From Eledone cirrhosa (lineage: Eukaryota), in the NCBI GenBank assembly GCA_964016885.1, contig OZ024741.1, forward strand, positions 310,372,001 to 310,436,000: DNA of 64,000 nucleotides. The letters run 5' to 3'. Below, in pieces: positions 8,321 to 59,719 of this stretch; the stretch's first letter is position 1; each line of letters opens with the position of its first letter. Below the pieces are notes generated by a model that was not told the origin of the DNA, made no database searches, and saw only the letters and a list, made by a program, of their open reading frames with translations. The translations under genes were made by a program, and so were the position numbers.

Positions 8321-9773
8321 TTTAACAATGATTTACAGATGTTCAACCTGAACATCAAACAAGACATTCAGACGAGAGTGTCATGTGGGATTTCCCTCTG
8401 ATTTTCACAATCTTTTAAAGAAAAAGATGTGAAAATCTGATGCTCAACTTTTTATTATTGTTTAATGAATTAAAATTTTTGATAGTTTCCATTATTAATA
8501 TTATAAATATAGAAAGAGAAATGCGACACATTTAAGTTGCAAGTAACCCTTCCTTTGATATCTGTAGATCATCCAGCTGGAAAACTGTAGTAGACTACTT
8601 TCTTCTACCGAAGGCCTGTAATGATTTGAAAGAAAAAATGAGTTAAAAATAAGCCCCAACAGAAAATATAGTCTTTTAAAACGTCGCGTACATAGTCTTT
8701 TATAAAATATAGTCTTTTAAAACGTCGCGTCTGCTTTGTCTAGTTAAAAATATATAATGGGAGATATTTTATCTTTGCCCTTCTTGAAAGTCAGTGGAAC
8801 TATACGGTAGAAGATGATCCTGAAAGGAACACAGCAAGCTATCATGTTATTCTCACACTGAACCAAAAATGTTCATTCATGTGAAATACGTTAATTGTAC
8901 CCAATAATAACATTTGGGTCTTAAATAGGGTGGCTAGACATCTGAGCAACCCACACAAATGTATAAAGAGATATACTATTTCAAATGGTACCACCACAAG
9001 AGATTTTATCTCACTGATCTCGAGCCACATATCGTCTCTGTTATGTGATTTATTGACAGATATATACAGATGTAGCTGAGGATGTCATGCTTATTCTAAG
9101 TAGTTAGTTACACGTTTGCAAGGCAACCAATGAAGTAGTCTCTCAAAAACTAAGAGAGGGCGTGATGTTAAGAAAGGAGAGATGGGTTAGAAAAAGAGAA
9201 AGAGGAAAAGTGAAAGTGAAAAAAAGTGAACAGAAAGAAATGAAGAAATGAGAAGTGAGCGTACGTAGAGAAGATTATAAAACAATGTTGTTTTAGTTGG
9301 TCGTATCTATTGTAGTCTATCGACCAATGTTTCCTACTTTTTAAAAAACAGTAAAGATGTAAGATATTTCTTCATTTATTAGTGGACATAAGATTAATCG
9401 CTCAATATTTAAACAAACAACCTATTTTTCGAACAATTGTGTGTCTTGCAATTTTTTTTGAATTTACGTAAATTTAATTGAACAATGCCAACGCACGTAA
9501 TTGACAATAAACAATATACAAAAAGCCGGGATGGATGAATGGACGGATGGATGGACGGACAAATGGATAGAAGGACGCACGGGCCGACAGGGCAGACATA
9601 TAGATAGATTGGTAGATAGATATATTTCTTTATTTGCTACAAGGGCGCACAAGAAAAGGGGACAATACAAAGTCACATGCCGGGGATTTTACATACAGTC
9701 GTGTAAAAATATTGAAACAAACAATTATAACAATCGAAATCCTCAATAGGGGGAAGCGCCACAAATGGGGTGT

Positions 9774-9858
9774 TTAATACCCCGTCGATAGAACAACCCT
9801 CAACTTAAGGAGCGTGTTGTGCAAGTGCTCCTTTCTTACTTTTGCTCTCTTCTTTAAC
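9774..9858 (-). CDS. Predicted spliced 3' exon of Tx1 ORF1 (RLKKRAKVRKEHLHNTLLKLRVVLSTGY*), copy A
   Basis: Begins right after ccttctctgtttataagcctgtag| (the ORF2 stop). Phase 2 matches the donor at 13330. Frame and TAA conserved in copies B and C, and in D apart from a 1-nt insertion. Confidence 0.6.
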
Positions 9859-12800
9859 CTACAGGCTTATAAACAGAGAAGGCCCAATCCCTCGGGCCAT
9901 TTTCGCTTCATTCACCCACCTTTCAGTAAATTTACTGGGGTGTAGTGCCTCTCTCTCCACTCTGATTCTCCTTCTAAAGTGATACTTAAAGAAGGAAATC
10001 AATTGCTGTCCGGAGAGAAAGGCATCTGTCCTCAGTCCTCTCAATCTCGTCCACCATATAACCTCTTTCACCATAGCCACTGTACAGAGGAAAACCGCCT
10101 CTCTTTCGTTCTTGAAAGAGACTAGCGGTTTGATCCTTACTATGGACTCGGCAGTCAACTGGATTTGTCCCATACGCGACAGCAGTTGTTCTGCATAGTT
10201 CCACAGGTCGCTTACGCCCGGGCAGTGTACAATTGCGTGCAAGACGGTTTCAATGTCCTGCTCGCACCTTGGACACGTCCTCTTGGAATGATCCCTGCCG
10301 GGGCGTCCGTGCCTGTAGATCTTATCTCGAACGGGTAGAGCTCCTCGGTAGCACTGCCAGGCCAGGGACCTCTGAAAGTTGTCCATAGGTCCCGGTCTGA
10401 AAGTCCTACCGAACAGACTGGTGAGCTCGTCGTCTTCGACACCTAGAGTCTCCCCCAGCACGTCGTCGCACTTGTAAAGTACTAACCCTCTATAGAATGT
10501 CGAAGTGGAGTCTCCACTGATTGCTGTGCCCGCTTGACAGAGGACTCTTAGAGCCTGGGTTCATTCAATATGCCAGGCGCCCATCTTCTTCTGTCTTCGA
10601 TTGACCCAGGACTGCAGCTCCGTCAGCGAGACAAGGTGTGGGAAGGCCTATCTCACAAACGGTGACCACACCGGCTGGTCGGTGAGGAATATCTGGAGAT
10701 GCCGTAGCCTCAGCGCATGTTTGCGCATCATTAGACACGGCATGCCCGGACCTCCGTTGGAAGGGTGCTGGCTGCAGACGGATTTCTTCACCAGTGGAGC
10801 CTGCTTCTTCCAAAGAAATTGGAAGAGAATGCATTCCATCTTGGTGAGGTGTTCACGGGGACTAGGCACGACGCTCAAGCGGTAGTAGATGACTGATGCT
10901 ATGAAAGTGTTAGCCACCTCCGCTCGACCTTTCAAGTATAGTTTTCACTCTGCCCACTTCTGGGTGAGCGCAAACACCTTGGCCGTGATCTCGTTCCAGT
11001 TTTTCTCCATCTGGAGGTCTGGACTGAACCAGACCCCGAGCAATTTCACCGGTCCGTCCGTCCATCGTCCATCGACGCTGTCGGACAGCATTTTTTTTGC
11101 CTCTCCCACGCTCCGAATTGCAAACCGACAGACTTGTCCGGGTTCAGTCTTGCTCCTGTGAACCTTTCGTATTCCTGTAATAGGTTGCCGATTACCTAGC
11201 TTTCCGAGGTTTTCCACACCATTACCGTCACGTTGTCGCCATAAGCCGACGCCGCTTTTCGCAGACCCGATTCTAAAGGGATGCCCTGCAACAGCTCCAA
11301 CTTCCGCAGTAGTGGCTCTAGAGTCAATACGTACAGAATGGAGGAGAGAGGTCATCCCTGCCGAATGGAACGCGTAATTGCGAACGGCTCCGATAGGTAG
11401 CCGTTCACCTTGACCCTCGAGCAGATGCTGGTGTGCATCGCCTTGATCCAGCCTCTAAAATCGCGACCGAAACCGGCCGCCTTGGAAACCGCTTCCAAGT
11501 ATCGATGGTCGACCATATCGAATGCCTTAGACTGATCTAAATTGATCAGAGACCCACCGAAGCCGGGTTTACAACCAACCCTCTTTATGATGTATCGTAT
11601 GAGGTGGAGGTTGTTGTGTATTGACCTGGTCGGGATTGCACACGTTTGCGCTTTCCCAACCAGGTTTTCGACGACAAGCGCCAGCCTCGCTGCTAGCACC
11701 TTGGCCAAAATCTTTAACTCTGTGTTGAGCAGAGTTATGGCCCTGAAATTGTTTATTTCGGCCCCTTGTCCTCGTCTTTCCTGATCAGCGTTACTACGCC
11801 CTTGCCTGCAGAACTGGGAATTTTCCCGTTCTGCTGCCAATTGCAGTAGACTGCTTCGAGGACGCCAGAGAACAAGTCCGGCATGCTTTTATAAAACTTC
11901 TAGGGTAGACCATCTAAACCGGGTGATTTGCGTTTCCCGCAGCGGCTTCGAGCGTCCCGTATCTCAGTGTCCGTGATCGGTCTTTCGCAGAACTCGGCGT
12001 CCGTGTTCCAGAGATGCGGCAGGCTGTCGAGGTATGAACTAAAGTCCATTGCCCCGTTCGGCTCACCGTCGTTCTGCTCAAACAGTCGCGCAAAGTGCCG
12101 CTGAAAGGCCGCGCACATTTGCTTGGGGTCAAGTAGCACGCGTCCGTTTTGGTCTATCAAAGACCGAATCGTGGACTTGTTGCCACTTTTTGCCTCCGCC
12201 ACTCGGGCCCAGCTGACAGCTTTCGCTCCTTCGTTTCCTAGAGCACGTGTTTTGCTTCTGACCACGCAGCCTTCGTGTTTCGCATCGAAGAACTGGTCCA
12301 GTGCCGTTCTCGACGCTAGCACTCTAGCCGCGTTGCAACTCCCAGGCCCCTCCTCTACCTTGGCTACTAGTTCTCTTTCTATTCTGTTTTTCTCTAAGGC
12401 TAACTCTCTGCTATACCCTATCGATTCTATTCTAATTGCTTTCTTGAGAGAGTACCACCATCTATTGTTGACGATGGCTCCCGTAAACTGTTGCTTGACT
12501 AGTCTACTTATCCGATCACTGTAAGCTTTACGTGCCGGCAACGACACGTTCAGCTTCCAGTATCCGCGACCCTGTCTATGTATTCTATCACGGTTGACTA
12601 AGCAGACGACTAACTTGTGATCTGAATAGGCAACCATGTGCATTCGTGGACAGCTTAACATCTCCTTGTCCCTTTCTCTAAATACGATCTAGATGTCCCA
12701 CTGCGGTTTGCCCACGTCCACTGTGGTGTAGTCGGGAAATCCAGTCGATACCTATCGGCCAGTTGGAATTGGCCGATTAAAGTTTTGAGGCTGTTGCACC

Positions 12801-13285
12801 CCGCTCTACTGGGACATGCTCCCACATAGTCCCATCGTGCATCTAGGATACCATTCCAGTCCCCCACTAAAAGTAAGGAGTGAGACGTTCCCAGAAAAGA
12901 CTCTAGACGCTTAAAGAAGTCTGGCCGTGATTGCGATTATCCGGTCGGGGCATAAACGGCCACCAGTCTGAAGGCTCCACCTCCGATATTGTTCATGTCT
13001 AGGACTACCAGTCTATTCTCCGGGTCCAAGTGTACTTGCTGTACTCCGACGTCCAGGTTCTTCCGAAACATGACAGTCACTCCACCTCCACCCCCTGGCT
13101 GACAGAGAAGCGTAAATCTCAAAGTCGTCGAAGATGGGGGTTAGTTGCTGCCTGTTGTGGATCCTGGACTCGGTGATGGCTATCACATCCATACTGTGTG
13201 ACCTAAGGTCGTTTAAAAGTTGGCCCTGATTCCAGGGCATCCCTAGGCCACGCACATTCACGGTTCCAACTCGTAAACTAGCCAT
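9859..13285 (-). pseudogene. Tx1 copy A ORF2 (APE endonuclease-RT-zinc knuckle), disrupted
   Basis: Chain of minus-strand ORFs 13013-13330, 12937-13122, 12655-12867, 11900-12661, 11352-11840, 10945-11355, 10648-10935, 9859-10461. Confidence 0.92.
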
Positions 13286-16200
13286 GTTGGTGAAGAAAAG
13301 TTGGAGAAAAAGGACGAAAGGTGCACTCACCTTTTCGTTTCCTGGAGATTGGCTTGTTCAATCTCCATTTGGGTGTTGGGTGGGGTGGGGAAACATTTTA
13401 ATAGGACGCGGTTGATGGGTTTGTGGTAGGGGTTGCCCACGTCCTGAGAAAATTTAATTTTTAGGTCATTATAGGTTTCCATAGAAACCCTTATAAGTTT
13501 AAGGTGTGGAGACGATTCTGCCTTGACGAAAGTTTTGCCCTCCGTCTCCACCTTGAGGTTTTGGGAGAACACCTCCATCAAACTCTTGTTGTTTGTGTTG
13601 ATGTATGCGTATTGTTGTTTGTGTTTTTGTTGTGTTGTTTTAGTTTGTTGTTCGTCCGGGAGTTTTCTTTTTATGGTGGGTGCTTGTGTTTGGGGTGGTG
13701 TTGGTGCTGGTTTTGCTGATAGGGGGATGTTTGACTGTGGTGTTGTTTGTGTTGGTGATTGAAGTTTTGTGGGTTTTGATGTATCTCTTTTTTTGTTTTT
13801 TAGATTTCCGCGGTTATCCCTCTTATTCACTTAAAGAAGGAGAAGCAGCTTCATCCGTCGATGAATAATCATCGTCAGGTGTGTGGGGTAAGGGTATCTT
13901 GTGTGGTGGTGGTGTTACGGTGTGTGTGTGTTTGTGGTAGTGTTTGATGGAGTGGGATGAGGTGGGGCTGTGTTCTTGAGGGGTGTTGTCTGTGTTTTTT
14001 CTGTTGTTGGTTGAGTGGCTGTTTGTTTTGGTATGTTTGCTCGTTTCGTCCTTTGTTGTACTTGTGGTGGTAGTTGTTCTGATAGTGTTGGTAATAGTGT
14101 CTTTTTAATGATGTTGTGGTGTGTTTGTGAAGGACAGGAGGCCTTTAGGTGTGCTGTGCTACCACAGCGAAAGCAATGAAGTTTTCGACCCTCCACCGTA
14201 ATGTTTATTTTGTTGTTGTTGTGGATGACGACTTTTTCGGGTATTATGGAGATTCTATTCGGCCTCATTTGAATCAGAATCTCCAAATCAGTACCCGCCC
14301 ACCTTTGTCTAATAGACTTTCGTATCGAAAGAATCATATCAGTCTCTGGCTCTACGAAGCCAGACAACATTCACCAGATGTTAATCTTGGGTGGTATATT
14401 TTTTATTTTTATTTTTTGTGTCCTTTTTTCCATGTACGTAGGGAAAAAGATGAATGCTTTTGACACCATTGGTGTCACAGAAAGATTTGGGGCGAGTGCC
14501 TCGCTTTTAAACAGTACGGAAACACTTCCGTACCGTTTTCCTCGTTGGAGAAAGTCAATATTTGCTAGAATCTCTAAGGTCGTTTAAAAGTTGGCGCTGA
14601 TTCCAGGGCATCCCTAGGCCACGCACATTCACGGTTCCAACTCGTAAACTAGCCATGTTGGTGAAGAAAAGTTGGAGAAAAAGGACGAAAGGTGCACTCA
14701 CCTTTTCGTTTCCTGGAGATCGGCTTGTTCAATCTCCATTTGGGTGCTGGATGGAGTGTTGGGTGGAGTGGGGAACATTTTAACAGGACGCGGTTGATGG
14801 GTTTGTAGCAGGGGTTGCCCACGTCCTGTGAAAATTTAATTTTTAGGTCATTATAGGTTTCCATAGAAACCCTTATAAGTTTAAGGTGTGGAGACGATTC
14901 TGCCTTGACGAAAGTTTTGCCCTCCGTCTCCACCTTGGGGTTTTGGGAGAACACCTCCATCAAACTCTTGTTGTTTGTGTTGATGTATGCGTATTGTTGT
15001 TTGTGTTTTTGTTGTGTTGTTTTAGTTTTTTGTTCGTCCGGGAGTTTTCTTTTTATGGTGGCTGCTTGTGTTTGGGGTGGTGTTGGTGCTGGTTTTGCTG
15101 ATAGGGGGATATTTGACTGTGGTGTTGTTTGTGTTGTTGTTTGTGTCTGTGGTTGTGTTGGTGTTGGTGATTGGAGTTTTGTGGGTTTTGATGTATCTCT
15201 TTTTTTGTTTTTTAGATTTCCGCGGTTATCCCTCTTATTTACTTAAATAAGGAGAAGCAGCTTTATCCATCGATGAATAATCATCGTCAGGTGTGTGGGG
15301 TAAGGGTATGTTGTGTGGTAGTGGTGTTACGGTGTGTGTGTTTGTGGTAGTGTTTGATGGAGTGGGATGGAGTGGGGATGTGTTCTTCAGGCTGTGTTGT
15401 CTCTGTTTTTTGTGTTGTTGTTGGTTGAGTGTCTGTTTGTTTTGGCGTGGTTGCTCGTTTCGTCTGTCGTTGTACTAGTGGTGGTGGCGGTTGTTTTGGT
15501 GTTGGTAATAGCGTTTTTTTTATGATGTTGTTGTTGTGTGTTTGTGCACAAGAGGCTTTTAGGTGTGCTGTGCCACCACAGCGAAAGCAATGAAATTTTC
15601 GTTCTTCTACCGAAATGTTTATTTTGTTGTTATTATCGATAACGACTCTTTCGGGTATTTTGGAGATTGTCTCCGGTTTCATTTGCAACAGAATCTCCAA
15701 ATCTGTGCCCGCCCACCTTTGTCGAATAGATTTTCGTATCGAAAGTATCATATCAGTTTCTGGCTCTACGAAGCCAGCCATGAACCACCAGATGTTAATG
15801 TTTGGAGGTATGTTTTTATTTTTATTTTTTGTGTCCTTTTTCCCATGTATGTAGGGAAAAAGGTGTATGCTTTTGACACCATTGGTGTCACAGAATTTTT
15901 TTGGGCGAGTACCTCGCTTTTAAATAGTACGGAAACACTTCGCTGGAGAAAATCGACATTTGCTAATATTTCCCTGAAAGTATCTTCTATATCTGCTTGG
16001 TTAAAAAATGTCGGCTTTCTTGTGGAATTTGACACAGTCCTAAAAGTGACTGATCTGCGGATTGTGTCTCCCTTTATTTCAAGGGGTGAGTTAATTCTAA
16101 ACCCACCTCTTTCTTCGAAAGTTACAAATTTTCTCCCTTGCTGGAGCATGTCTCTTGCGTTGGAGATATCAAGATTTATAAAATCTTTTTTTTTTGTTCA

Positions 16201-16789
16201 CTGTTTCAGCGAAAGACATTTTCTTTTTTTGTGTGGTGTTGCTGTTGTTGTTGTTGTTATCGTTGTTGGAAATCTCAGTTCCTTGTCGAGGTGAAACATT
16301 ATGTGTATATATATCTGTAGAGTTGTTGAAGTCTTTTTCATGTGTATGTATGTTAATGGGTTTAATTCCTGTGTTTTCCTGTGTTATTGTTATTTTTCTC
16401 CGCTTCGACGGTAGAAATTTTAAAATTTTCAAGTGTTAATATATTTTTCTTTTTGTTGACACTTGTATCTGTGGCGACGTCCATAGTAGCAGAAGCAGAT
16501 ATAACGTTAATATCTGCCTCTTTCTCTCTCTTTTGTCTATTAACGTTCTCCAGCGTTCTTGTGTTGCTTAAGTTATTTAGTTTGTAAAATCTGATATTTT
16601 AAAACAAACTTTTAAAATAAAATTTTCGCCCCTACAGGGGCGAAACATGGGATTACCACCCAGCTGACAATTCAGCTTGGGGTTAATCTACAAAATGATA
16701 TGATTTTTTCAAACAATTAGTTAGGTTTTTTGCATAGAAATAAAAAAAAGCTTACCGGCGATGTTCCACACGTCAGATAGAAAGTGAGA

Positions 16790-18386
16790 TAGATAGATAG
16801 ATATATTTCTTTATTAGCCACAAGGGCGCACAAGAAAAGGGGACAATACAAAGACATGCCGGGGGTTTTACATACAATCGTGTAACAAATATAAAAATAA
16901 ACAATTACAACAATCGAAATCCCCAATAGGGGGAGGCGCCACAAATGGGATGTTTAATACCCCGTCGATAGAACAACCCTCAACTCCAGGAGCGTGTTGT
17001 GCAAGTGCTCCTTTCTTCCTTTTGCTCTCTTCCTCAACCTACAGGCTTATAAACAGAGAAAGCCCAATCGCTCGGGGCTTTTTTGCTTCATTCACCCACC
17101 TTTCAGTAAATTTACTGGGGTGCAGTGCCTCTCTCTCCACCCTGATTATCCTTCTAAAGTGATACTTAAAGAAGGGAATCAATTGTTGTCCGGAGAGAAA
17201 GGCATCTGTCCTCAGTCCTCTGAACCTAGTCCACCATATAACTTCTTTCACCATAGCCACCGTACAGAGGAAAACCGCCTCTCTTTCGTTCTTGAAAGAG
17301 GCTGGCGTTTTGATCCTTACTATGGCCTCGGCAGTCAACTGGATTTGTCTCATACGCGACAGCAGTTGTTTTGCATAGCTCCACAGGTCGGTTACGCCCG
17401 GGCAGTGTACAATTGCGTGCAGAACTGTTTCAATGTCCTGCGCGCATCTTGGACACGTCCTCTTGGAAGGATCCCTGCCGGGGCGTCCATGCCTGTAGGT
17501 CTTGTCACGAACCGGTAGATCTCCTCGGTAGCACTTCCAGGCCAGGGACCTCTGGAAGTTGTCCATAGATCCCGGGCGGAAAGTCCTACCATACAGACTG
17601 GTGAGTTCATCATCTTCGACGCCCAGAGTCTCTCCGAGCACATCGTCGCCCTTGTAACGTACAATCCCCCTATGGAATGTCGAAGTGGAGTCTCCACTGA
17701 TTGCTGCGCCCGCTTGCCAGAGGACTGTGAGCGCCTGAGCGCATTCAATGTACCAGGCGCCCATCGTTTTCGGTCTTTTCTTCATCCAGGACTGCAGCTC
17801 CGTCAGCGAGACGAACTGTGGGAAAGCCTGTCTCACAAACGGTGCCCACACCGGTTGGGCGTCGGTGAGGAATACCTGGAGATGCCGCAGCCTCAGCGCA
17901 TGTTTGCGCATGATCAGCCACGGCATTCCCAGCCCTCCGTTGGAAGGGTGCTGACAGCAGACGGATCTCCTCACCAGCGGAGCCGGCTTCTTCCATAGAA
18001 ACTGGAAGAGCATGCGTTCCATCTTGGCGAGGTGTTCACGGGGACAAGGCATGACAGTCAAGCGGTAGTAGATGACGGACGCTATGAAAGTGTTCGCTAC
18101 CTCCGCTCGACCTTTCAAGGACAGTTTGCACTCTGCCCACTTCTGGGTGAGTGCAAACACCTTGGCCGTGAGCTCGTTCCAGTTTTTCTGCACCTGGAGG
18201 TCTGGACCGAACCAGTCCCCGAGCAATTTCACCGGTCCGTCCGTCCAGCGTCCAACGACGCTGTCGGACGTCATCGGTTTGCCACTCCACGTACCTAGTT
18301 GCAAACCGACAGACTTGTCCGGCTTTAGTCTTGCTCCCGTCAGCGTTTCGTATTCTTTCAGTAAGTTGCCGATCACCCCGATTTCC
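16790..18386 (-). mobile_element. Tx1 copy B, 5'-truncated (ORF2 C-terminal third, open)
   Basis: ORF 17039-18386 is homologous to the C-terminal part of copy A ORF2, with the same 3' UTR, AATAAA and (TATC)n tail. The 5' end abuts (GATA)n. Confidence 0.95.
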
Positions 18387-18439
<53 letters not shown>

Positions 18440-18440
<1 letters not shown>

Positions 18441-21400
18441 CAAATGGATAGAAACATTTCTTTATTAGCCTCAAGGGCACAAATACAAATGGGGAGTTTA
18501 CATACAGGTATATGAAAATAAAACTATTAATACAATAACAAATAACAATTGAAATCCCCAATAGGGGGGAGGCGTTACACAGTGGTTTTACACCCCGAAG
18601 AGTGAGTACTCCCTTCCTCTCTTCCTCTTTTTCCTCAACCTACAGGCTTATATAGAGAGAAGGCCCAACCACTCGGGCCATCTTTGCCACATTCACCCAC
18701 CTTTTATAAAATTTGCTAGGGTACAGCACCTCTCTCTCCATCCTGATTCTTCTTCCAAAATGATATTTGAAAAAATGAATCGGTTGCTAGCCGGAGAGAA
18801 AGGTGTCTGACCTCAATTCTTTTAACCTGGTCCACCATATAACCTCTTTCACCATAGCCATAACACATAGGAAATCTGCCTCTCCCTCGTTTTTGAAGGA
18901 GGGTGGCGGTTTGATCATGACAATGGACTCGGTGGTCAACTGGATTGGTCCCACACGCGACAATAGTCATTCTACATAGTCCCACAGGTCGGTAACGCCC
19001 GGGAAGTGTACAAATGCGTGTGTGACGGTTTCTTCGTCTCGTACGCACCTCGGACAGATCTTTTTTGCAGGGTCCCTACCCGGGCTCCCGTGTCTGTAGA
19101 GCTTGTCTCGAACTGGTAGAGCTCCTCGGTAGCACTGCCAGGCCAGGGACTTTTGGAAGTTGTCCATTGGTCCCGAGCGGAAGGTCCTACCGAACAGACT
19201 GGCCAGTTCGTCCTCCTCTATGCCTAGATTTTCTCCGAGCGTGTCGCCGAACTTGCTGCGGACCAACCCTCTATACGATGTCGAGTGGAGTCTCCACTGA
19301 TCGCCGGGTCCGTTTGCCAGAGGACTATGAGCGCCTGAGCACATTCGATGTGCCAATCGCCCATTTTCCTCGGTCTTTGCTTGACACAGGACTGCAGCTC
19401 GATCAGCGAGACGAGTCATGGGAAGGCTCGCCTCACGAACGGGGCCCACACCGGTTGTCTGGTGAGGAATACGTGGAGGTGCCGCAGCCTGAGCGCGTGT
19501 TTGCGCATCGTCAACCACGGCATCCCCAGCCCTCCGTTTGAAGTGTGTTGGCAGCAGATGGATCTTCTCACCAAAGGAGCCCGCTTCTTCCAAAGGAATT
19601 GGAAGAGCGCGCGCTCCATTTTGGTGAGCGTTTTGGCTGGACAAGGCACGACGGTCAAGCAGTAGTAGATCACGGACGCTATAAAAGTGTTCGCCACCTC
19701 CGCTCGACCTTTTAAGGATAGTTTGCACTCGGCCTACTTCTGGGTGAGTGTAAACACCTTGGCCGTCACCTCGTTCCAGTTCTTCTCCACCTGGAGGTCA
19801 GGACCAAACCAGACCCCGAGCAGCTTTACCGGTCCTTCCGTCCAGCGTCCGACGACGTCATCGGAAGGCATCGGTTTGCCTCTCCACGATCCGAGTTGCA
19901 AACCGACGGATTTGTCCCGGTTCAGCTTCGCTCCTGTGAACCTTTCGTATTCCTACAGTAAGGTGCCGATCTCCCTGATTTGCAAGGGTCTCGAGACCAT
20001 TACCGACACGTCGTCGGCGTAGGCCGACGCCGCTTTCCGCAGTCCCGGTTCCAAAGGGGTGCGCCCTCCAATAGCTCCAACTTCCGCAGTAGTGGCTCGT
20101 GAGTCAGTACGTACATAAGGAAGGAGAGAGGGCATTCCCGTCGGATGAATCGCGTGATATGGAACGACTCCGAGAGGTAGCTGTTTACCTTGACCCTTGA
20201 GCAGATGTTGCTGTTGTGCATTGCAGCAATCCAGCACCTGAACATGGGTCCGAAGCCTGCCGCCTCGAGCACCGCGTCCAGGTAACGATGGTCAACCCTA
20301 TCGAAAGCCTTAGACTGATCTAAGTTGATCAGGGCCCCACCAAAGCTAGGTTTACACCCTACCCTCTCTATGATGTATCGCATGAGGTGGAGGTTGTCGT
20401 GTATGGACCTGGTCGGGATTTCACACGTTTGGGCTTCCCCTACCAGGTTCTCGACGACAAGCGCCAGCCTTGCTGCTAACACCTAGGCCAAAATCTGTGT
20501 TGAGCAGAGTTATGGGCCTGAAATTGTTTATCTCACGCCCTTGTTCTCATCTTTCCTGATCAGCGTTACTACGCCTCTGCCGACAGAACTGGGAATCCTC
20601 CCGTTTTGCTGCAAGTTGCATTAGACCGCTTCAAGGACGCCAGAGAACAAGTCTGGCATGCCTATGTAAAACTCATAGGGTAGACCATCTAAACCGGGTG
20701 ATTTGCGTTTCCCGCAGCGGTCTAGAGCATCTTTTATTTCGCCCGCTGTGATCGGCCTTTCGCATCTCTCCGCATCCGTGCTCGAGAGTTGCGGTACGCC
20801 GTCGAGGTAGGAGCTGAAGTCCATCACCTTGCTCGATGTACCACTTTGCCTGAACAGTTGGGCAAAATGCTGCTGGAAGGCCGCGCACATCTGCTTGGAT
20901 TCAAGTATAATGCGTCCATTTTGTCTTGCAAAGACCGAATTGTGGATTTGTTGCAACTTTTCGACTCTGCCACTCGGGCCCAGGTAACAGCTTTGGCTCC
21001 CTCGTTTCTTAGAGCACGTGTTCTACTTCTGACAATACAACCTTCGTGTATCACGTTGAAGACTGGTCTAGTGCCGTTCTCGCCGCTAGCACGTCAGCTG
21101 TACTGCCATTCCTAAGTACCTCTTCTACTTTAGCTACCAGTTCCTCTTCAGTTTTGATTTTTTCTAAAGCTACTTCCTGGCTAAATGCTATCGATTCTAT
21201 TCTAATTGCTCCCTTGAGAGAGCTCCACCACCTGTTGTTGACGATCGACCTCGTCAACTGGCACTTAACTAAAGTGCTAATCCGTTTACTGTAGGCCTTA
21301 CGCGCCGGGAGCGACATGTTTAGCTTCTAGTATCCGGGTACCTGTCTATGTGTTCTATCAAGGTTCACTACGCAGGAGACTAATTTGTGGTCTGAAGAGG

Positions 21401-23971
21401 CAACCATTTGCATTTGTGGACAGCTTAATGTTTCCTTATCATTCTGTCTAATCAAAAATCTATCTAAATACGAACTAGAAGACCCAGTGAGGTTGCTCCA
21501 CGTCCATAGTGGTGCACTTGGGAAATCTAGTCGATATCTATCAGCCAGTTGGAATTGGCTAATGACATTTTTGAGGCTATTACACCCCCCTCTATTATCA
21601 CAAGCTCCTACATAGTCCAAACGTGCGTCTAAGATGCCATTCCAGTCCCTCGCTAACACTAAGGAGCGAGACGTTCCCAGGAATGGCTCCAGACGCTTCA
21701 AGAACTCTGATCGTGATGTCCCAGTCGGGGCATATACGGCCACCAGTCTGAAAGCTCCACCTTCACTACCATTCACGTCCAGGACCACCAGGCTGCCCTC
21801 CGGGTCCAAGTGAATCGTCTGTATTTTGAGATCCAAGTTTTTTCGAAACAGAACAGCAACTCCCCCTCCACCCCCTGGCTGACAGAGAGATGCGTAGATC
21901 TCAAAATCATCGAACATGGGGCTTAGCTGCTGCTTGTTGTGAATTCTGGACTCGCTGATGGCTATCACATCTATACAATGTGACCTGAGATCATTTAAAA
22001 GCTGGCCCTGTTTCCAGGACATGCCCAGGCCACGTACATTCAAACATCCAGCTTGTATTGTCGCGATGTTGGTGAAGAAGAGTTAAGGAGAGAAAAGGCA
22101 GGAACACTTACCTTTTCGTTTCCTGGAGGTCGGGTTGTTCGATATCCATGTCCATATTGGTGGTGTTTGCGGAGGGAGGGAATCCTTTTAGCAGGAGACG
22201 GTTAAGGGGCTTTTGGCAAGGGGGGCCCACATCATGTGGGAAGTTCTCTTTTAAAGTTTCATACTGTAGGGTTGTTACCCTGATAAGTTTGAGGTTTGGG
22301 GTGGGTCGTTGGTGGGGAAGGTTTTCCCTTCCGTTTGTATTGTGGGGTCCTTTCGGACAGTTTCCACCAGTTCTTTGTTTCTTGTTTTTATGTATGTGTA
22401 ATGTGTTTTGTTTTTATGTGTACTGTTTCTGTTTGTAGTTTTCTTTTTGTGGTTGGGGTTTGTGATTGTGGTGGTGTGGGTGTTTGTTTTGTTGGTGAAG
22501 TGTTTGGTTGTGTTGGTGGTGATTGTGTTGTTGGTGTGTTTGCCGTTTGTGGCGGTGTGTTTATGGTGGGGTTGGGTGTGTGCGTCTTTTCTGTAGATGT
22601 TTTTTGTGTCTTTTTTGTTTTTTGGAATTTTGGGCATTCTCTTCATTCTCACTTGAAGATGTAGAGGCTCCCGTGTCTGAGACTTCTGAATCAGAGGTAG
22701 ATGGGAGCGGTATGTTGTGTGGCGGAGTGTTTGTGGAGGTGTTTGTGGGAGTATGTGACAGGGGGGGGGGGAGGCTATGGAGGGTTTTTCAGTGGGATTT
22801 TGTGTGTGTGGTTGTCTCTGGTCTGTGGTGGGGTGGGAGTGGATGTTGCAGGTGTTTGTGTTGTGTTTGGTTTGGAGTGTTGATGTTGGGGTTTTGGTGT
22901 TGGTAATAACACCTTGTTTGTCCTCGGTTTGTTTAAGAAAGGGCAAAAGGCCTTTAAGTGTGTGGTTTTCCCACACTTATGGCACTGAGGTCTTTTCCCC
23001 TCCACTCAAATTGAGATGACATATTCCTGAAGGACGATCCTGTCCGGTATTTTCTCAACTCTCTCTGGCCTCATTTGTACCAGAACCTCGATGCAGGTTC
23101 CAAACCAGTTATGCCGGTCTGTCCTGTCTACAGATAGGAGGGTGTCCTCATCCTTCTTCAGGATGCAGCGTAGGATCCACCATATGTTGACCTCTGTTGG
23201 GATCCTGGTTATTTTTATTTTGTAGGATCTTCTTCCCATGTATGTGGGGAAGAAGATTTGTTGATCCGTTTTTATTGGGTGAACCGAGTGTTTTTGTGCC
23301 AGAGTTTCGCTCTTAAAGAGCACTGACCTAAATATTGGGACTTTCGGGAAATGCCGATGGAGTAGTATTTAAAATCTTGTTGCTGTAAATAAAATTTTGT
23401 TATTGTTGTTGTTGGTGGTGATGATGGTCTCATTCGTTGTGTTGCCACTGATTCCTTTTGTTGTGTTGTTGTTGATCTCATTTATTGTGTTGTTGTTGTT
23501 GTTGGTTGTGGTGGTGTTAGTGTTTGCTACACATACTTCCTTCCGTGTGTGGATACATGTGACGTTTGTGACGTTTGTGACGTTAGGCGTGTTCAGTTGC
23601 TTACAAGTAGCTGAAGTTTGTTCCTCTTCTAAATGTTGAGTCGATAATGTTGGCATTCCTTTGTCCATGTCTGCTACTACCTGCTGGTCAAGTAGGTATG
23701 GCTTTCCCTTCCCATCTTCTTGTTTTGACGGAGAAGTAGATGCCTTTGCTTCAGCCATTCTTTAAAAATTGAAGTGTGTTGCAAACATTTTTTCGAATAT
23801 ATTTTGGATGTTTTTGCCCTGAGGGGCACGATATTTTGGGAGACTGACCAGATCAATATTTGACCTGTCAGTCCCTCTACAAATTGGCATAAAAATAAAA
23901 GTTCACAATGAGGAATTTCTAAAGAAATTTAAACAAAACTTACCGAGCAAGTTTAACACATGTGTCCATCC
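18440..23971 (-). mobile_element. Tx1 copy C, full length, diverged subfamily, disrupted
   Basis: ORF1 starts at MAEAKAS (23758), has knuckle CHKCGKTTHLKAFC and ends DLQETKR*. ORF2 has APE (21327-22043), RT with AYADD (~20030) and CPRC. Same 3' structure as copy A. Confidence 0.95.
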
Positions 23972-23994
23972 CAGAGATAGATAGTTAGACAAAT

Positions 23995-25072
23995 GGATAG
24001 ATTGATATCTTTCTTTATTTGCCACAGGGGCGTACAAAAATGGGACATTACAATGATGAATAACCATAAACTATATATAAAATAAAACAATCGAAACCCC
24101 CATTAGGGGGGAACGTTACTGCGGGGTTGTTTTACATCCCCGTGGATAGAACAACCATCAACACCAGGAACACGTTTTGTAGGTGTTCCCGTCTTCCTTC
24201 TGTTTATCTTCCTCAACCTACAGGTCTATATACAGAGAAGGCCCATTCACTCGGGCCATTTTCGCCACATTCAGCCACCTTTCAGCGAATTTACTGAGGT
24301 GTAGCCTCTCTTTCTCCACTCTTACCTTCCTTCTGTGGTACTTAAAGAAGGGGATAAGTTGTTGTCCGGAGAGAAAGATGTTTGCCCTCAGTCCTTTTAA
24401 CCTCGTCCACCATATTACCTCTTTCACCATAGCCACATACAGTGGAAGACCGCCTCTCCTTCCTTCTTAAATGAAGGCGGCGGGGTGATGCTCACGATGG
24501 ACTCAGCTGACAACTGGATGTGTCCTACACGTGACAGTAGCTGTTCGACATAATTCCACAGGTCGGTCACCACTGCGCACTGAACAATTGTGTGCAGAAC
24601 GGTTTCAATGTCCTGCTCACATCTTGGACAGATCCTTTTAGCAGGATCTCTGCCAGGGCGTCCGTGCCTGTAGATTTTGTCTCGAACTGGTAGAGCTCCT
24701 CGGTAGCACTGCCAGGCCAGAGACCTCTGGAAGTTATCCATAGGCCTTGGACGGAAGGTCCTCCCGAACAGACTGGTCAGTTCGTCTTCCTCGATGCCTA
24801 GAGTTTCCCCGCTTGGTAGAGGGCTGTGAGCGCCTGAAGGCACTCAAGGTGTCAGGCGCCCATTTTCGGCCTTCGCTTGATCCAGAACTGCAGCTCTGTT
24901 AGTGAGACAAGTTGTGGAAGAGCTCGTCTCACAAAGGAGAACCACACCGGTTCGCTGGTCAGGAATACCTGGAGATGGCGTAGCCTCAGCGCGTGTTTGC
25001 GTATCATCAGCCACGGTCGCCGAGCCCTCCGTTAGAAGGGTGTTGACAGCAGATGGATCTCCTCACCAATTG
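23995..25072 (-). mobile_element. Tx1 copy D, 5'-truncated 3' fragment
   Basis: ORF2 C-terminus (FQRSLAWQCYRGALPVRD...CPRC), 3' UTR and AATAAA; flanked by GATA tracts. Confidence 0.92.
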
Positions 25073-30464: not shown

Positions 30465-33400
30465 TTATATATAGGAAAAAGTATGACCCCGACGGCAGAG
30501 CTCAAGCCGTTTCGACAGCTATTTCTGGACTAAATTAGAATTTTTAGCCTGGTGAATAAATAGCCGAACTTTTCAAAGGGGTACTTCCTTATATGAGAAG
30601 ATTGTAGTTGTCAATAGGATTGGTTAAAATTTGTTGTAAACACAAATAAGTCTATTTGGTGGGTGGTAGGGGTTGCTGAACTTGCCTGTAGAACAATAGG
30701 GGAGTGAGTGGAGCGGTCAAGCGTTGAAAGTGATATGTATACATCAGATTCTAAGGATAGTGTATGAAGTGGAGGAGGGACGTTATAGAATAGGTAAATC
30801 GAAAGAGAGTAGGAGACAATAAAAGATACTAGAAAGAAAAAAAAAATATATATATATAATTAGATAGTGAGAAATTAATAAAGATATCACAATGCTATCT
30901 TACAATTACAGGTTAATAAGTTGAGAAATCGATGATGTGTTTTCGCATCGTGCGGGTGAAGCAACTTGAACTGCGTGGAAAAATCGGGATATGGCGTGGT
31001 AGAGTCGGAAAGTGCTCTACTACAGAGATAGGAGCTAAATAACAAACGAATTGTGGTAAGGAACCAAAAGGACTATAACGCACCAGTGTACTCAATACTT
31101 AGAGTAGTAGAGTGGGAAATAGGAAAAAGTATGAACCCGACGACAGAGCTCAAGCCGTTTCGACGGCTATTTCTGGACTAAATTAGAATTTTTAGCCTGG
31201 TGAATAAATAGCCGAATTTTTCAAGGGGGTACTTCCTTATATGGCAAGATTGTAGTTGTCAAGAGGATTGGTTAAAATTTGTCGTAAACACAAATAAGTC
31301 TATTTGGTGGGAAGTAGGGGTGGCTGAACTTGCCTGTAGAACAATAGGGAGTGAATGGAACGGTCAAGCGTTGAAAGTGATATGTATACATCAGATTCTA
31401 AGGATAGTGTATGAAGTGTGGGAAGGAGGTTATAGAATAGGTAAATCGAAAGAGAGTAGGAGACAATAAAAGATACTAGAAAGAAAAAAAAAATATATAT
31501 ATATAATTAGATAGTGAGAAATTAATAAAGATATCACAATGCTATCTTACAATTACAGGTTAATAAGTTGAGAATAGAAAAAACACTTATAGAAATTACA
31601 AAACAGATACAAACTTAAAGGGGTTTTTAACACATCTGCTATAAGTAGTTAGTAAAACGTATTCGGCCAATTCTATCTTAAAATAACAGGGGTGGGGGAA
31701 CTGATGCTACAAGGCCCGATGGGCTGCATCGAGGTAGGCGAAAGGGGAAAGCAGACGAGGAAGAAAATAGGGGGTGGAAGGAAGTGATAGATTGAAACAG
31801 GGGGAAGAAGGAGACAAAGAGGAAAATAAAAGAGGTATATTTACTCATGTAAGCTGGGGTTTCCTCTAACTTATTCGGCAAGTGTAAGCGGTGTATCAAC
31901 CCTTGTCTACCCACCCGGGTCGTTATAGGGTTTGAGGGCGAGGTAAGTCCTACGCAATCTGTGTTTGCATGCGGTTACCAGTTGATCTTTCTTGTTTAGG
32001 AGTTGGTCCTTCGAAAACAACATGTGTAATGTTTCCTCCGAGCATAGATTACACGGACGGCGTCCTCCCGTGTAAGAGTTAGCTCTGGACAGTGAGCTCC
32101 AAGTGAGATTGTAGGTTATATTGTTATCTTGGAGGTCTCAGATGTAGCCCGAAAGTGTAGTGGCATGTTGCCGAACCGGGTTTTCGGAAAATGTGTCGGT
32201 GTTGGTAGAGCCGGGTCTTGAAGTCACATGCGGTTAATCCTATATAAGCTTTGTCGGAGGTGTCTGTCCTGACGTTGGACTGGTAGATCACGTTACGTTC
32301 TCGGCATTTGTTGTTGAGGGGGCACGTGGATCTATCAGGGCAGTTAAACCTCCTGGTCGGCTCTCCACTGATGTCTAGGTTATTTCTTCCATAGGGGTTG
32401 AGTTTTTTGTTCTTTTAGGAGACGATGTTTTGTGCGAAGTTAGGTCTGGTGCTGTAGGAGAGTTTGATGGTGTTTTTGTTGATTATGTTGTGGTAGCGGT
32501 GTTGTAGTAGAAAGTGTTTTTCGAGGAGTCTAAAGAAGATTTACCCGATAGGTGTTGCCACCTCGGCATTGTGGGGAGGATTGAACCACGTTACGTTGCG
32601 TGAGCGGCGGTGTCGCCTGTTGGTTCCGCTAAGGGAAGCTGGATAAAAGGATATTTCCTCCCGGAAGCCACTCCGCTTGAGGGCCTGGTTGTAATGAGGC
32701 GCGTGTTCGTCGAATATCTGCTCATTAGCGGACAAACGAGATATGTGGAGGGAGATGTTTTTAACCAGGTTATTGGTGATGTTTCTAGGATGGTTAGAGC
32801 GGCGGTGGATGTAGTGCAGGTTGTCGTTTGGTTTCCTGTATGGGTAGTACAGATCATTTTCGAGGTTAAGGGTAGCGTCCAGGAAATTGACTCGGGTTAG
32901 GGACGTTTGTAGGGTGATTTTAAATCCCCAGTCCCGGAAGAAGTTGATTAGTTGTTTACGGACCCGGTCTGTACTACTGGGGTTGTACCCTTTGAGGGTG
33001 AGGAGCCCATCATCCCGGTACAATCCACGCCGAATGCAGGAAACATTTCGGTGAGTTTAAATAGTAGGAATAATCCTATAAGATCTGTGACCTCGGCCGA
33101 ATCCATCACGCCCATACTGACGTCGAAGGGGGATTCGGGAGCTCTCTTTATCCACTTGGAGTTGTCGAAAAGTAGGACTGTCTTCCTGGCGGGGAGAATG
33201 ATATTTCTTTCCTGGTCAGTAATGGGCGTGAGTGTTTCAGCAAAGTCCAAGTCGACCGTAGGAGCGGTAAGATAATAGTAACTCTCTATGTCAAACTGGA
33301 TGAATTTTGTGTCTCGTTTGTGCTCCATATTCCTGAACCATGAGATTACTTCCAGGGTGCCGACCATAAGCTAAGTCTCACGTTTTGCTTAACTTTTGGT

Positions 33401-34860
33401 ATAACTCGGTCTAGGATCTTTTTACAGATTCTCCCTATGTCCGACTTCGTTGGGTTTATAAGCCTAATGGATGGTATGCGGTCGAAGTCGGATTTGTGGT
33501 CCTTCAGTGTGAAGTAGGGAGTCCGTGGGTCTAGGGGTTCAGTGCGCTCGGAGACCCCGAGTCTGGAGGTAATTTGTTGTCCGTCTCGATTTATGTCCTC
33601 GATAATTGAATGGTTAGCCTTTTTATAGGCGGAGTTTAGGCTGCTCCTGATCAGTGTGTGGTATCTGTCAGGGTTAACGAAGTAGAGGTTTCCAGTTTTG
33701 TCCGAGTGCACCATGATGTCGTTGGTGTTTTCATACTCTGTTATTTTGCTACGGAGTTGTTGTAGGAATGTGTTGTGTCTGGGTTTGAATTTAATGCTTT
33801 TGACCAGGTGGAAAAGGTCGTTCTCGAAGGGTGAGAGCATAGGGTTCGGAGGGCGGATTTGTAGGTATTGAATCCAAATGTCTCCTTGGTGTCGAAGTCC
33901 AGATTGTCGCAGTATCTATCGTAGAAAAAAGTTCTCTATCTTAGTCTTTTCGCAAAAAGGTCGATTTTTTGCGTGATCATTCGAAGGTAAAGTTTTGTCG
34001 GTGGAAGTGGGATGTTCTTGGTGGAGAATTCGATGTTGTGTTTTCGCATCGTGCGGGTGAAGCAACTTGAGCTGGGTGGAAAAATCGGGATATGGCGTGG
34101 TAGAGTCGGAAAGTGCTCTACTACAGAGATAGGAGCTAAATAACAAACGAATTGTGGTAAGGAACCAAAAGGACTATAACGCACCAGTGTACTCAATACT
34201 TAGAGTAGTAGAGTGGGAAATAGGAAAAAGTATGAACCCGACGACAGAGCTCAAGCCGTTTCGACGGCTATTTCTGGATTAAATTAGAATTTTTAGCCTT
34301 GTGAATAAATAGCCGAATTTTTCAAGGGGGTACTTCCTTATATGGCATGATTGTAGTTGTCAAGAGGATTGGTTAAAATTTGTTGTAAACACAAATAAGT
34401 CTATCATGGCATTTGGTGGGAGGTAGGGGTTGCTGAACTTGCCTGTAGAACAATAGGGGAGTGAATGGAACGGTCAAGCGTTGAAAGTGATATGTATACA
34501 TCAGATTTTAAGGATAGTGTATGAAGTGTGGGAAGGAGGTTATAGAATAGGTAAATCGAAAGAGAGTAGGAGACAATAAAAGATACTAGAAAGAAAAAAA
34601 AAATATATATATATAATTAGATAGTGAGAAATTAATAAAGATATCACAATGCTATCTTACAATTACAGGTTAATAAGTTGAGAATAGAAAAACACTTATA
34701 GAAATTACAAAACAGATACAAACTTAAAGGGGTTTTTAACACATCTGCTATAAGTAGTTAGTAAAACGTATTCGGCCAATTCTATCTTAAAATAACAGGG
34801 GCGGCGGAACTGATGCTACAGGGCCCGATGGGCTGCATCGAGGTAGGCGAAAGGGGAAAT
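30070..34860 (-). mobile_element. Penelope-like element (probably Hydra-clade-like), near full length, with tandem and inverted pseudo-LTRs
   Basis: Disrupted ORF ~34050-31850 (FSTKNIPLP, HSDKTGN, RLINPTKSDIG, QFDIESYY, FDVSMG..DSAEV, YRDDGL, VNFLDATL, WFNPP, CPLNNKC, YIGLT). Pseudo-LTR copies at 34020-34860, 30920-31790 and 30466-30920; inverted copy at 30255-30415. Confidence 0.93.
30300..30396 (+). ncRNA. Hammerhead ribozyme, U3-A8 core variant with long stem II (further copies on minus strand: 30486-30582, 31134-31230, 34235-34331)
   Basis: acccct-TTGAAAA-gttcggctattt...aaatagctgtc-GAAA-cggc ttgagctct gccg-TC-ggggt. Confidence 0.75.
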
Positions 34861-41581: not shown

Positions 41582-44500
41582 AATACACATCCCAACAACA
41601 ACAGACACACAGACACAAACAACGATAACAACAACACACACATCAACATCAACAATAATAACATACCCAGAAACAACAACGACAGACACGCAGACACAAA
41701 CAACAATAACAACACACACAACAATAATAACATACACGGAGACAACAACAACAACACACATCAACAACAGCACACACCAACAACAACAACAACACACACA
41801 CATTCTATGCCTCTCACCACCACCACAATCTTAACAAACACACAGACACAGAAAACATGTAATGACAGTAACACAGAAATAAGGGAAGGTAATAGGATTG
41901 AAAGGAGAAGGGAGCCTATCAATACTGACAGAGAAAATAACCAGGACGAACACACAGACACACTAAATAGAATAGATAATAACAATGAGTCAGAGGAAAG
42001 AGACAGGAGTAATAATGAGAGATATAGAAACAACCATGAGTCTGTTGGTGGAAATAGAAATAGAAACAACACAACTAACAACAACAATAGCAATAGTACA
42101 CATAACGCAGCAGCCTGGAACTCTACATTTTATAATCCTTCCGATAAGTCTTTCGACCTACGACGAGTCCAATCCCACGACTTTAGCTTTTAACAAACGC
42201 ACGCAATTGCCGTCGCAGGTCGATGAACAAACAGAAGCACAATTTAGTATAGCTAGATCTAAACTTAGAAATATTATAGAACAGTATAGCAAGAAGCAAA
42301 GTAGAATGGAGACCCAGTAACTGGGAGAAAAATCTGCAAATGGCTTGCGTAAGCTCATGCGGCGCTCGTGTAATGGAGAGATTGCATGCTTTCCAACAGA
42401 CAAGTCTGGCAGAATGTCGGTTGACAGTCTGTCAAACTACATCCAGGCAATGCAACCCTACATCACTAACACAAGAGAAGTAACACCACAAGAGCATGAG
42501 GATAGGGAAACAACCGTCAATGCTCATATGATGATGTGGACAAATATAATGCAGCCCAACAAAAGGACTGCCAACAACTTCCAGGCCTGGATCAATGACG
42601 TGCCAGCGTTGTTTGGGCTTCGAAAAGACCATAAAACAAGCAGTGACGCTGTCACAGGACCACAAACACGGCCAGTCTGTGGAGCTAACATTGCTAGTAT
42701 CTACAGACTTTCCTAATTCCTCTCCCTGATCATACGCCCCATCCTTGAAATGTCCCCAGATATATGTGACAGCACGGAGGACCTCCTCAGCAGAATCGAC
42801 GAGAGTAACCGATCTAGGGACCTAACAGACTGCACAATAGGTAGTATGGATGTTGTGTCCCTATATCCATCTATTAACGTGGATTTTGCTGTGGAGAAAT
42901 GCGTAGAAATGATCAGTGAGAGCAAGGTTGAATTCCGTGGGATTGATACCAGTGAGCTGGGACTCCTACTTAAACTTACCTATAGTAATGATTATCTAGA
43001 TACATATGACCTTAGCAAACTGTGCCCTACAAGAGCAGCAAGAGGCAGACCACCTACCATTACCTCAATGGCCAAGAAAACCCACACAGATAGATGGAAC
43101 GTGTGGACCAGAGCCATACGGACCCCGAAAACCACGATGAACTAAAGAAAATGATTGCACATGCGGTGGGGGCCAGTATAAAATTAACCCTTAAGGAATA
43201 TATGTTCAAATTTAATGGAAAAACATATGCCCAAAAGGAGGGAAAAACCATTGGTGTTTGCATTGCAGGTGACATAGCTAACCTATTCATGGTATGGTGG
43301 GACAATAGACTTAAACTTAAACTTAAAGAACAATTAGAAGACAGCAACCTCTTAACCCTGATAATGTACTCCAGCTACGTTGATGATATAAACATCGTAG
43401 TAAACCTCCCCACTAGAGAACAGTCAAGAATTAGAGAAAAACACCACGGAAAGCATCCAACAAATAGCTAACTCCATCACCAGAGTATTAGAGTTACTAT
43501 AGACTACCCAAGCAAACACCCCAATCATCGATTACCTGTGCTAGGCACAGAGCTCTGGTTAGATACCATTAATAACAAAAAACAAATCCTCCATTCCCAT
43601 TATGCCAAACCCATGACTTCCAAATATCTGATCCACCGAAACTCAGCTGTTTCGGACCATACCAAAATCAACATACTGATTGCGGATTCGGTACGGGTGA
43701 TGAGAAACGTGTCCCGCATGTGCAACCCCGAAGAACTAGAGAGACACATACTACACTTCATCCACCGTATGCAGTTCTCTGGTTACAATCAGAGAGATAA
43801 AATCAGAGTATATAGAGGAGCCAGAACCAAATGGGAAAAAATGGTAAATAATGATACAAATGGGACCTGCCCCTTGTATAGGAGCAAATTTTGGAATAGA
43901 ATAGAAAGAACTAGGAATAAGGTTAATAGAATAAACTCATGGTATGATATCAATAAATACCAGAGTGTAATGTTCATCGATACAACTCCTAGAGGTGAAT
44001 TAGCTTACAAATTTAGAAGGGCCCTAGATAAACATAAACTCAATATTAAGATAGTAGAAAGACCAGGTACCTCCATAAAAACACTTATTAGCAATACATA
44101 CCCTTTTCAAAGACCTCCCTGTATAGATAAGAAATGTATAATCTGTAAATTAAGCCCCCATGTTAACTGTAAAACTAGAAATGTAGTGTATAGCATAAGA
44201 TGTACTGAAGGACAATGTAGAGATAAGAATATAGCACATAGGTGAGACAGCTCGTAGTATAGGAGAACGGATAAATGAACACTGGCGAGAGCTTCAAGAT
44301 AGTAAAGAATCATCTGTACTCCACCAACATGCTAAAATAGAACATAAGTGTAAATTAGAGAACATAGAAATAAAAATAGAAGCTACACACAGAAAAGACG
44401 CAATGTTTAGACAAATCACAGAGACAATAAACATAAACGAACTCCAACCAAAATTAAATAGAAAACATGAATGGAACAGCAACATCACAACTTACAATTA

Positions 44501-58560: not shown

Positions 58561-58561
58561 T

Positions 58562-58998: not shown

Positions 58999-59152
58999 GA
59001 AGGCAGGGGTGTGAAGCGGGGTGGAGTGAACGAAGGGGTGAGTGCGAAGGATAGGCAGAGACGGGGAAGGGAAAATGAAACAGAAAAACGTACGGAGGGG
59101 GGAGTAAACACAGGAAAATTAAAGACAAAATATCATAAAGGTAAAGACACAG

Positions 59153-59425: not shown

Positions 59426-59719
59426 CTGAAAATATCAATATATATGATAATGTTGAAGATATCATTAATTACATACAGATATCAATGATACAATTGTATA
59501 CCAAATTTTAAGATTAAAGTGGCCTTGGGATAAAGAAATGAACTTGTATACTTATTGAATATTATATCGATCCTCTATAATATATACATGGATTTTCAGT
59601 TCAGTTAAATGCAATGTTAAAAACATTATGCAAAAAACAAACAATCCAATTTCATCAGAAAAGTAACATATATAATCCTACAAAATCTTACCATATTCTA
59701 TCAGTTCCTTCTTTAAAGG

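Follow-up and report, generated by a model that had tools for sequence, protein, structure and literature searches.

The stretch analysed here, a window of 64,000 nucleotides from Eledone cirrhosa (contig OZ024741.1, positions 310,372,001 to 310,436,000), contains four long interspersed nuclear element (LINE) copies, A to D, which lie head-to-tail on the minus strand, nested in (TATC)n, at window positions 9616–25070 (blastn). These elements have two open reading frames (ORFs), ORF1 and ORF2, the latter encoding an endonuclease and a reverse transcriptase (RT). A conserved 5' splice site, or donor, is present at the stop codon of ORF1. Judged from the sequence, the chances are about evenly balanced that the spliceosome removes ORF2 facultatively through this site, leaving an mRNA for ORF1 alone, in the manner of the retrotransposon copia. 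A preliminary description of the same DNA had proposed that ORF2 is an intron of ORF1, followed by a hidden coding 3' exon with a nuclear localization signal (NLS). The facultative intron, with its conserved donor, stands as the most likely reading; the coding exon and a fixed acceptor at the ORF2 stop do not. In the segment beyond ORF2, conservation concerns a set of RNA hairpins and not a protein sequence.

In the window, the donor lies where it had been placed, reading AAG|GTGAGT in copy A (13325–13333, minus strand), with a second copy from a duplication at 14696–14704 (minus strand), and AAG|GTAAGT in copy C (22106–22114, minus strand). Each of the three overlaps the ORF1 stop, and in most copies of family A the site is GTAAGT, not GTGAGT. 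Conservation across subfamilies had been proposed as the test on which the idea could fail, and the donor was found far beyond the window, including in a distant family, X. For this comparison, copies were sampled from the 3.0-Gb genome by similarity, by a degenerate endonuclease pattern (2015 matches, from which 30 loci were used and 29 stretches extended) and by a distant protein as query (30 loci, 16 stretches), and grouped into families designated by letters. A consensus 5' splice site ends ORF1 in all 13 subfamily representatives of this genome, among which endonuclease identity to A falls to about 61%. Counted by junction, it is present in 63 of 69 from families A–J and in 26 of 30 from families N–R (25 NNG|GTAAGT and one CAG|GTAATT); of the N–R junctions that lack it, two have GTGAAT and the others carry a mutation or deletion confined to one copy. 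The donor hexamer occurs only as GTAAGT, GTGAGT, GTAGGT or GTAATT, all donor-like, while the stop varies among TAA, TGA and TAG and the spacer behind the site diverges. With scores derived from generic splice-site frequencies, which are not trained on introns of the host species, the donor ranked first among the 289, 294, 211, 226, and 347 GT sites of A, C/D, H, I, and N, respectively, and second among the 367 of family X.

Family X comes from another source and shares 40% ORF2 identity; there, TAAG|GTAAGT stands one base past the ORF1 stop in 71 of 71 occurrences, drawn from overlapping loci. The controls were 24 distant LINEs, taken from contigs of metagenomes and genome collections. No donor at their ORF1 stops reached 5.4 bits (the highest scored 4.7), and their sense strands, 119,556 nt in all, contained no site scoring 7.5 bits or higher. 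In the E. cirrhosa genome, the distance from the GT of the donor to the ATG of ORF2 is about 39–55 nt, whereas the position of the ORF1 stop shifts. Relative to ORF1, seven families (A, C, H, I, J, N, and R) have the donor in phase 2, three (H2, O, and P) in phase 1 and one (Q) in phase 0; in N2 and X it comes past the ORF1 stop. This drift of register indicates that selection holds the donor at the RNA level, whatever the position of the stop codon, and that no reading frame is held across the junction.

A matching acceptor is not conserved in the same way. As described, ORF2 ends in CTG TAG|GTT in all four window copies (9859, 17039, 18640, and 24218), and TAG|G ends ORF2 in 11 of the 13 representatives. 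This acceptor is weak, and it is lost in N and Y. In N, the youngest family, ORF2 ends in TAA, and the best acceptor of the element is 178 nt into the 3' untranslated region (UTR) (13 copies; p = 0.05). The highest-ranking acceptor lies 251 nt into the 3' UTR in X and 184 nt into it in Y, and in none of these three families is the site clearly above shuffled sequences. The pyrimidine tract of the X acceptor varies, with TAG|ATTAG constant in seven variants. When four-fold degenerate sites were compared, conservation in the last 48 nt of ORF2 versus upstream was 7/9 against 22/56 in five families (p = 0.036) and 4/8 against 12/47 in seven (p = 0.16). A second conserved acceptor, before the AATAAA of families A–K, was considered and rejected; the AG is found in a few copies only, and TGTGG is the norm.

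Several observations weigh against the removal of ORF2 by splicing. The acceptor at the ORF2 stop scores from −2.4 to 4.9 bits, a level that the best site of a shuffled UTR also reaches, and the best 3'-end acceptor of the 13 representatives gave p values of 0.05–0.99 against 300 dinucleotide shuffles; families P and Q have no good acceptor, and an acceptor scoring 6.5 bits or more is also present in the 3' UTR of 4 of the 24 control LINEs. The related family Y (L217) has no ORF1 donor, and a TAATG stop-start overlap (L217:6578) couples its ORF1 and ORF2. The lineages with the donor are themselves related, with about two independent clades carrying it in a tree where the placement of the frameshifted C/D and I rows is unreliable. 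Within this genome, 28–35% of four-fold sites are also invariant (singletons with large deletions excluded), which makes the free donor positions modest evidence by themselves; the weight of the donor evidence falls on family X, the controls and the register drift. Finally, retrotransposed spliced copies, which the preliminary description had suggested looking for, were not found at the A/C/H, N or 5' UTR junctions. The exact spliced junction of A/C had no match in the genome, a looser pattern for A/C/H gave one chance match, the N junction had none, and none of the 11 matches of the 5' UTR donors was spliced. In all, 854 genomic matches to donor 16-mers compare with 0 spliced junctions, the exact patterns being such that mutated junctions are missed. 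Contigs from three sequencing runs of one sample, compared with the family A copy L021, gave no donor-acceptor joint among the 15 matches listed (648 more exist); the runs look like DNA, and this result bears on splicing in neither direction. Because spliced RNA of families A–K would keep the hairpins described below and could be mobilised in trans, the absence of retrocopies argues against abundant splicing in the germline. It is compatible with a strict cis preference or, in N, with loss of the hairpins on splicing.

The 3' segment, read by the preliminary description as an exon extending ORF1 in a conserved frame, showed no such constraint. The spliced peptides predicted for copies A, B, and C were reproduced as quoted. 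Copy D, said to match the others apart from one inserted nucleotide, does not yield the peptide of A: in the splice frame it reads RLRKIN..., and the extra base is fixed in family D (4/4 aligned copies, and every D-type copy of a separate set). The 33-nt shorter tail of copy C, taken for a frame-keeping variant, is a private deletion in a chimeric element, absent from the other E-type tails fetched. Many differences were said to be synonymous in the exon frame, but across subfamilies most are not; between the A, E, and F tails, the ratio of nonsynonymous to synonymous differences (pN/pS) was 0.72, 0.67, and 2.0, and the two remaining frames gave 0.22–0.85 and 0.57–1.87. Nor does the terminal stop keep its position, with tails of 1, 28, 33, and about 45 aa. 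Joined in phase 2, A gives 28 aa, D gives 28 aa largely in another frame, E gives 33, and F about 45, and the tail of K would be 35 aa (its donor was not seen). In families I and G a stop follows the junction immediately, as it does in H2 through its phase shift (five H2 copies paired). The first 33 nt of the segment are 82–97% purine, and family I retains 7 of 10 Lys/Arg (K/R) codons behind its stop, so that the basic bias of the tail can be attributed to the purine tract. In the predicted N tail there are 2 K/R in 20 aa, and a basic cluster such as RKSKKQKKR is already present inside ORF1. Neither a kept frame nor purifying selection on the peptide was found, and an NLS exon as a conserved feature of the lineage is refuted.

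What is conserved in this segment is structure. Across 22 copies of seven families, three helices were paired in 90.7% of 506 cells, compared with 38–57% in slid controls, and 9 of the 23 base pairs have changed on both sides, that is, in a compensatory way, as in a structured LINE 3' UTR. The same three helices were returned by RNAalifold unaided. The copies are related, and counts from shuffles are not to be read as probabilities. Folding of single sequences gave weak z-scores (+0.01 to −2.86); the case for the structure is made by covariation. Searches with words from the ORF1 C-terminus found nothing, and a profile search returned 18 proteins, none with an RLRK-type tail. Seven of these 18 have Gly in the last four residues, mostly as GK or GR (G is the final residue in two from Logan contigs, and contigs of about 2.2 kb are the source of four). 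Gly near the C-terminus is the footprint expected of a phase-1 donor, and is taken here as a hint only.

We infer that U1 binds the donor and that the spliceosome uses it on part of the transcripts, so that excision of ORF2 would give an mRNA for ORF1 alone; RNA left unspliced would be used to translate ORF2 and would provide the template. The donor is never more than a few codons away from the ORF1 stop; a site upstream would truncate the ORF1 protein (ORF1p) and a junction far past the stop would probably invite nonsense-mediated decay, for which the standard rule is 50–55 nt. The acceptor would not be fixed, being predicted at the ORF2 TAG in A–K and at a 3' UTR site in N and X. Sequence past the junction would then be 3' UTR, consisting of the purine tract and the three hairpins, likely for recognition by the ORF2 protein (ORF2p), and the peptide added to ORF1p, of 0 to about 45 residues, would be incidental. 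The purpose may be an excess of ORF1p over ORF2p. LINEs need far more ORF1p than ORF2p, which is usually ascribed to inefficient translation of ORF2 from a bicistronic RNA.

Comparable strategies are known in elements with long terminal repeats (LTRs). In Drosophila copia, an intron of roughly 3 kb spans the enzyme region, and the spliced RNA, which lacks RT and encodes Gag only, is about 10 times more abundant (10.1101/2023.05.27.542554; PMC5580714). The E. cirrhosa elements would resemble it in a single transcript with the enzyme region as candidate intron, and they share the conserved donor closing the structural ORF that marks copia-type splicing of the structural gene alone. They differ in that copia, an LTR element, has a single ORF for a polyprotein and its splicing is proven, whereas here a two-ORF LINE has predicted splicing with an acceptor of variable position. 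In the shGAG strategy of the plant Ty1/copia elements EVD and BARE1, a conserved donor terminates the structural gene, and there U1 both splices and represses termination (PMC5580714), and plant Ty1/copia elements keep separate RNA pools for translation and replication (PMC3735527). A conserved donor closing the structural gene is common to both cases; EVD and BARE1 have a short intron and premature termination, while in our elements no poly(A) hexamer occurs in ORF2 (three elements checked), and the candidate intron comprises ORF2 in full. Human L1 has conserved splice sites (SpORF2, SpIREs), including a 5' UTR donor that removes the 5' UTR or ORF1, not ORF2, and is explained by a RUNX3 site; spliced retrocopies make up about 2% of its full-length insertions (PMC5860796, PMC2896524), in contrast to the elements studied here, for which none were found. 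Stringent LINEs (UnaL2, ZfL2, SART1, and algal and monocot L1) have structured 3' UTR stem-loops (PMC5135761). The structured 3' UTR is shared; in our elements, three hairpins lie directly past the ORF2 stop, about 100–220 nt from the 3' end, and their binding by ORF2p is putative. A LINE with ORF2 as an intron was not found in full-text searches of the open-access literature, so that for LINEs the copia-like strategy would be new there; the conserved signal is firm, and splicing is its predicted use.

Four other explanations of the donor were weighed. The main one, rather unlikely in our estimate, is that the site binds the U1 small nuclear ribonucleoprotein and is rarely spliced, and that together with the U-rich tract it protects, retains or elongates the full-length RNA, as at the EVD donor, where a splicing-independent role of U1 is described (PMC5580714). 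A donor conserved without its acceptor and the absence of spliced retrocopies would both be accounted for, as would the extra donors near the 5' end (A, C/D, N, and X) and past the ORF2 stop (X, Y, P, I, and G), none of which was seen spliced in DNA. This explanation is at odds with the top-ranked acceptors that N, X, and Y hold downstream and with the lack of A(A/T)TAAA in ORF2 (0 in 3/3 elements checked), which leaves the donor no canonical poly(A) signal to suppress in their ORF2. It is improbable that the donor works together with the pyrimidine tract and the start codon as a single unit for ORF2 expression, through control of reinitiation or, where an AG precedes the ATG, a short spacer intron fusing ORF1 and ORF2. 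The steady distance from GT to ATG against a drifting ORF1 stop favors such a unit, as does the strong AG at the end of the tract in H, Q, and R (7.0–10.2 bits), whose removal in H would be in frame; in A, C/D, I, M, N, and P there is no AG at that place, the intron would measure merely 28–49 nt, the H2 fusion would be out of frame, and X has no tract.

Inheritance by chance, in which an ancestral AGG-stop-GT resembled a donor and was passed on without function, appears quite improbable. Stop codons supply three of the letters, the families of this genome still share 55–80% of four-fold sites, and family Y does without the site; yet the donor persists where the stop has moved off it (phase 0, phase 1 or past the stop) and at 40% protein identity, and strong donors are otherwise absent from the sense strands of the control LINEs. 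Most improbable of all is the full model of the preliminary description, in which the ORF2 intron is followed by a conserved basic 3' exon that adds an NLS to ORF1p. The tails of A, D, E, and F do start with RLRK or RLKK, with 4–7 of 10 K/R in that frame, and four-fold sites in the final 48 nt of ORF2 show somewhat higher conservation than those upstream. Against this stand the immediate stops in I, G, and H2, the donor past the stop in N2 and X, the frameshift throughout family D, a pN/pS not below that of other frames, the purine-derived K/R bias, the N tail poor in K/R, the covarying hairpins and the basic cluster that ORF1 already has.

Of the four window copies, all on the minus strand, copy A (9616–16791) is full-length and decayed, and was assigned to family A by blastn to L021, which has an intact ORF2 (89–92% identity). 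The 3' end of its ORF1 and the start of its ORF2 are duplicated in tandem, with parts at about 14574–16791 and 9616–14574. From 5' to 3', it has a donor CCG|GTAAGC about 22 nt from the 5' end (16750–16758); a pyrimidine-rich spacer and the ORF2 start codon in the context CCAACATGG (13283–13324); a broken ORF2, the candidate facultative intron, with APE endonuclease, RT and zf-RVT domains by Pfam (9859–13285); a weak candidate acceptor at the ORF2 stop, formed by a pyrimidine run and CTGTAG|G (9859–9885); and the head of the 3' UTR, the former "hidden exon" (9740–9858), with the purine tract and then the three covarying hairpins (about 9833–9807, 9799–9763, and 9755–9740). Behind AATAAA (9629–9634) come GAAA and then the (TATC)n target repeat, without a poly(A) tail. 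Copy B (16797–18388; blastn) is a 5'-truncated member of family A with its ORF2 stop at 17039. Copy C (18448–23979; blastn) is a full-length chimera, of C/D parentage 5' of about 20300 (88–97% identity) and E/F parentage 3' of it (88–93%), with the ORF2 stop at 18640, the 33-nt tail deletion and a 5' UTR donor TCG|GTAAGT (23938–23946). A switch of subfamily inside an element was thus seen near 20300 in copy C, and L272 apparently combines a different ORF1 with an N-type ORF2. Copy D (24005–25070; blastn), 5'-truncated and of family D, has its ORF2 stop at 24218 and a tail frameshifted relative to A; family D is the natural partner of the C-type donor. Elsewhere in the window, decayed RT-bearing elements lie at 32500–33900, 42300–44250, 49000–50500, 55300–58300, and 59600–61000, which look Penelope-like by their motifs; two of them gave weak RVT_1 matches only (Pfam). 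A fragment of another LINE RT is found at 58557–59054.

Other splice-like sites were observed in the elements. A, C/D, and N (the latter seen in L265), whose 5' UTRs are unrelated, have donors 20–30 nt from the 5' end, and X has a donor in its 5' UTR. In A and C/D, TTTGTAG lies about 67–70 nt past the 5'-end donor, and candidate acceptors for that of copy A are about 70 and 125 nt downstream, so a short 5' UTR intron is putative in these families. A second donor is found 15 nt (X) and 40 nt (Y) past the ORF2 stop, and in P, I, and G the TAG|GT that ends ORF2 itself resembles a donor. In X (L190:7482–7719) and Y (L217:3529–3673), a strong acceptor 150–240 nt past the ORF2-stop donor delimits a candidate retained 3' UTR intron. 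One X variant (L195, L210) has its ORF2 stop shifted into the post-ORF2 donor.

By their ORF2 domains, namely an APE endonuclease, RT and C-terminal cysteine motif, the elements fit L1-group non-LTR retrotransposons. PF03372 and PF00078 were above the Pfam cut-off, PF13966 was above it in N and below it in A, and the closest solved relative is human L1 ORF2p (E 1e-53, PDB search). In ORF1, a candidate zinc knuckle, C-x2-C-x4-H-x4-C, can be read in the sequence, with PF00098 below the cut-off, and its named relatives are from Octopus sinensis, O. bimaculoides, and Argonauta hians. Insertion into repeats without a poly(A) tail, the habit of Tx1-type elements, was observed in 66 of 75 3' ends (TATC/TC, 51; ATT, 15), together with the tandem nesting in the window. 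No named Tx1 reference was among 81 homologues, and the Tx1 label is our assumption from target habit and general resemblance, not from an RT tree. Kibi and Koshi are APE-type Tx1 LINEs inserted in simple repeats (PMC4494074, PMC3812793); they share the microsatellite habit and differ in their targets, and the accessible parts of their descriptions do not mention splicing. The search for family G matched mostly flanking simple repeats, 10 of the 11 fetched stretches lacking an ORF2 end, and the donors of G and K were not seen. Family N is very young and inserts in (ATT)n, not (TATC)n, with many open ORF2 frames of 1204 codons and intact ORF1 (e.g., L265 and L267); in one N copy, L264, ORF1 and ORF2 form a single open frame of 1851 codons. 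Family X occurs as tandem arrays in contigs filed under a bacterial metagenome-assembled genome (MAG). The contigs L178–L218, L221, and L222, filed as an uncultured Arenicella MAG, are tandem arrays of intact eukaryotic LINEs and are likely host DNA binned as a bacterium. No relative of the elements was found among viral contigs.

Tentatively, and with somewhat less confidence than a toss-up would carry, these LINEs of octopods and a wider range of invertebrates may be built like a spliceosomal gene, with a 5' UTR intron, ORF1 as main exon and the endonuclease-RT region as an intron retained or removed; in one branch, alternative donors past each stop codon would share a single acceptor in the 3' UTR. 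The ratio of ORF1p to ORF2p would then depend on splicing, which would also separate translated from template RNAs. The covarying 3' hairpins define a putative RT-recognition element that can be tested. The donor defines one precise junction that can be sought in RNA-seq of cephalopods, and the family concerned is young and has many open ORF2 frames. The presence of the donor at the end of ORF1 in families at 40% ORF2 identity points to an RNA-processing solution that would be convergent with that of copia.

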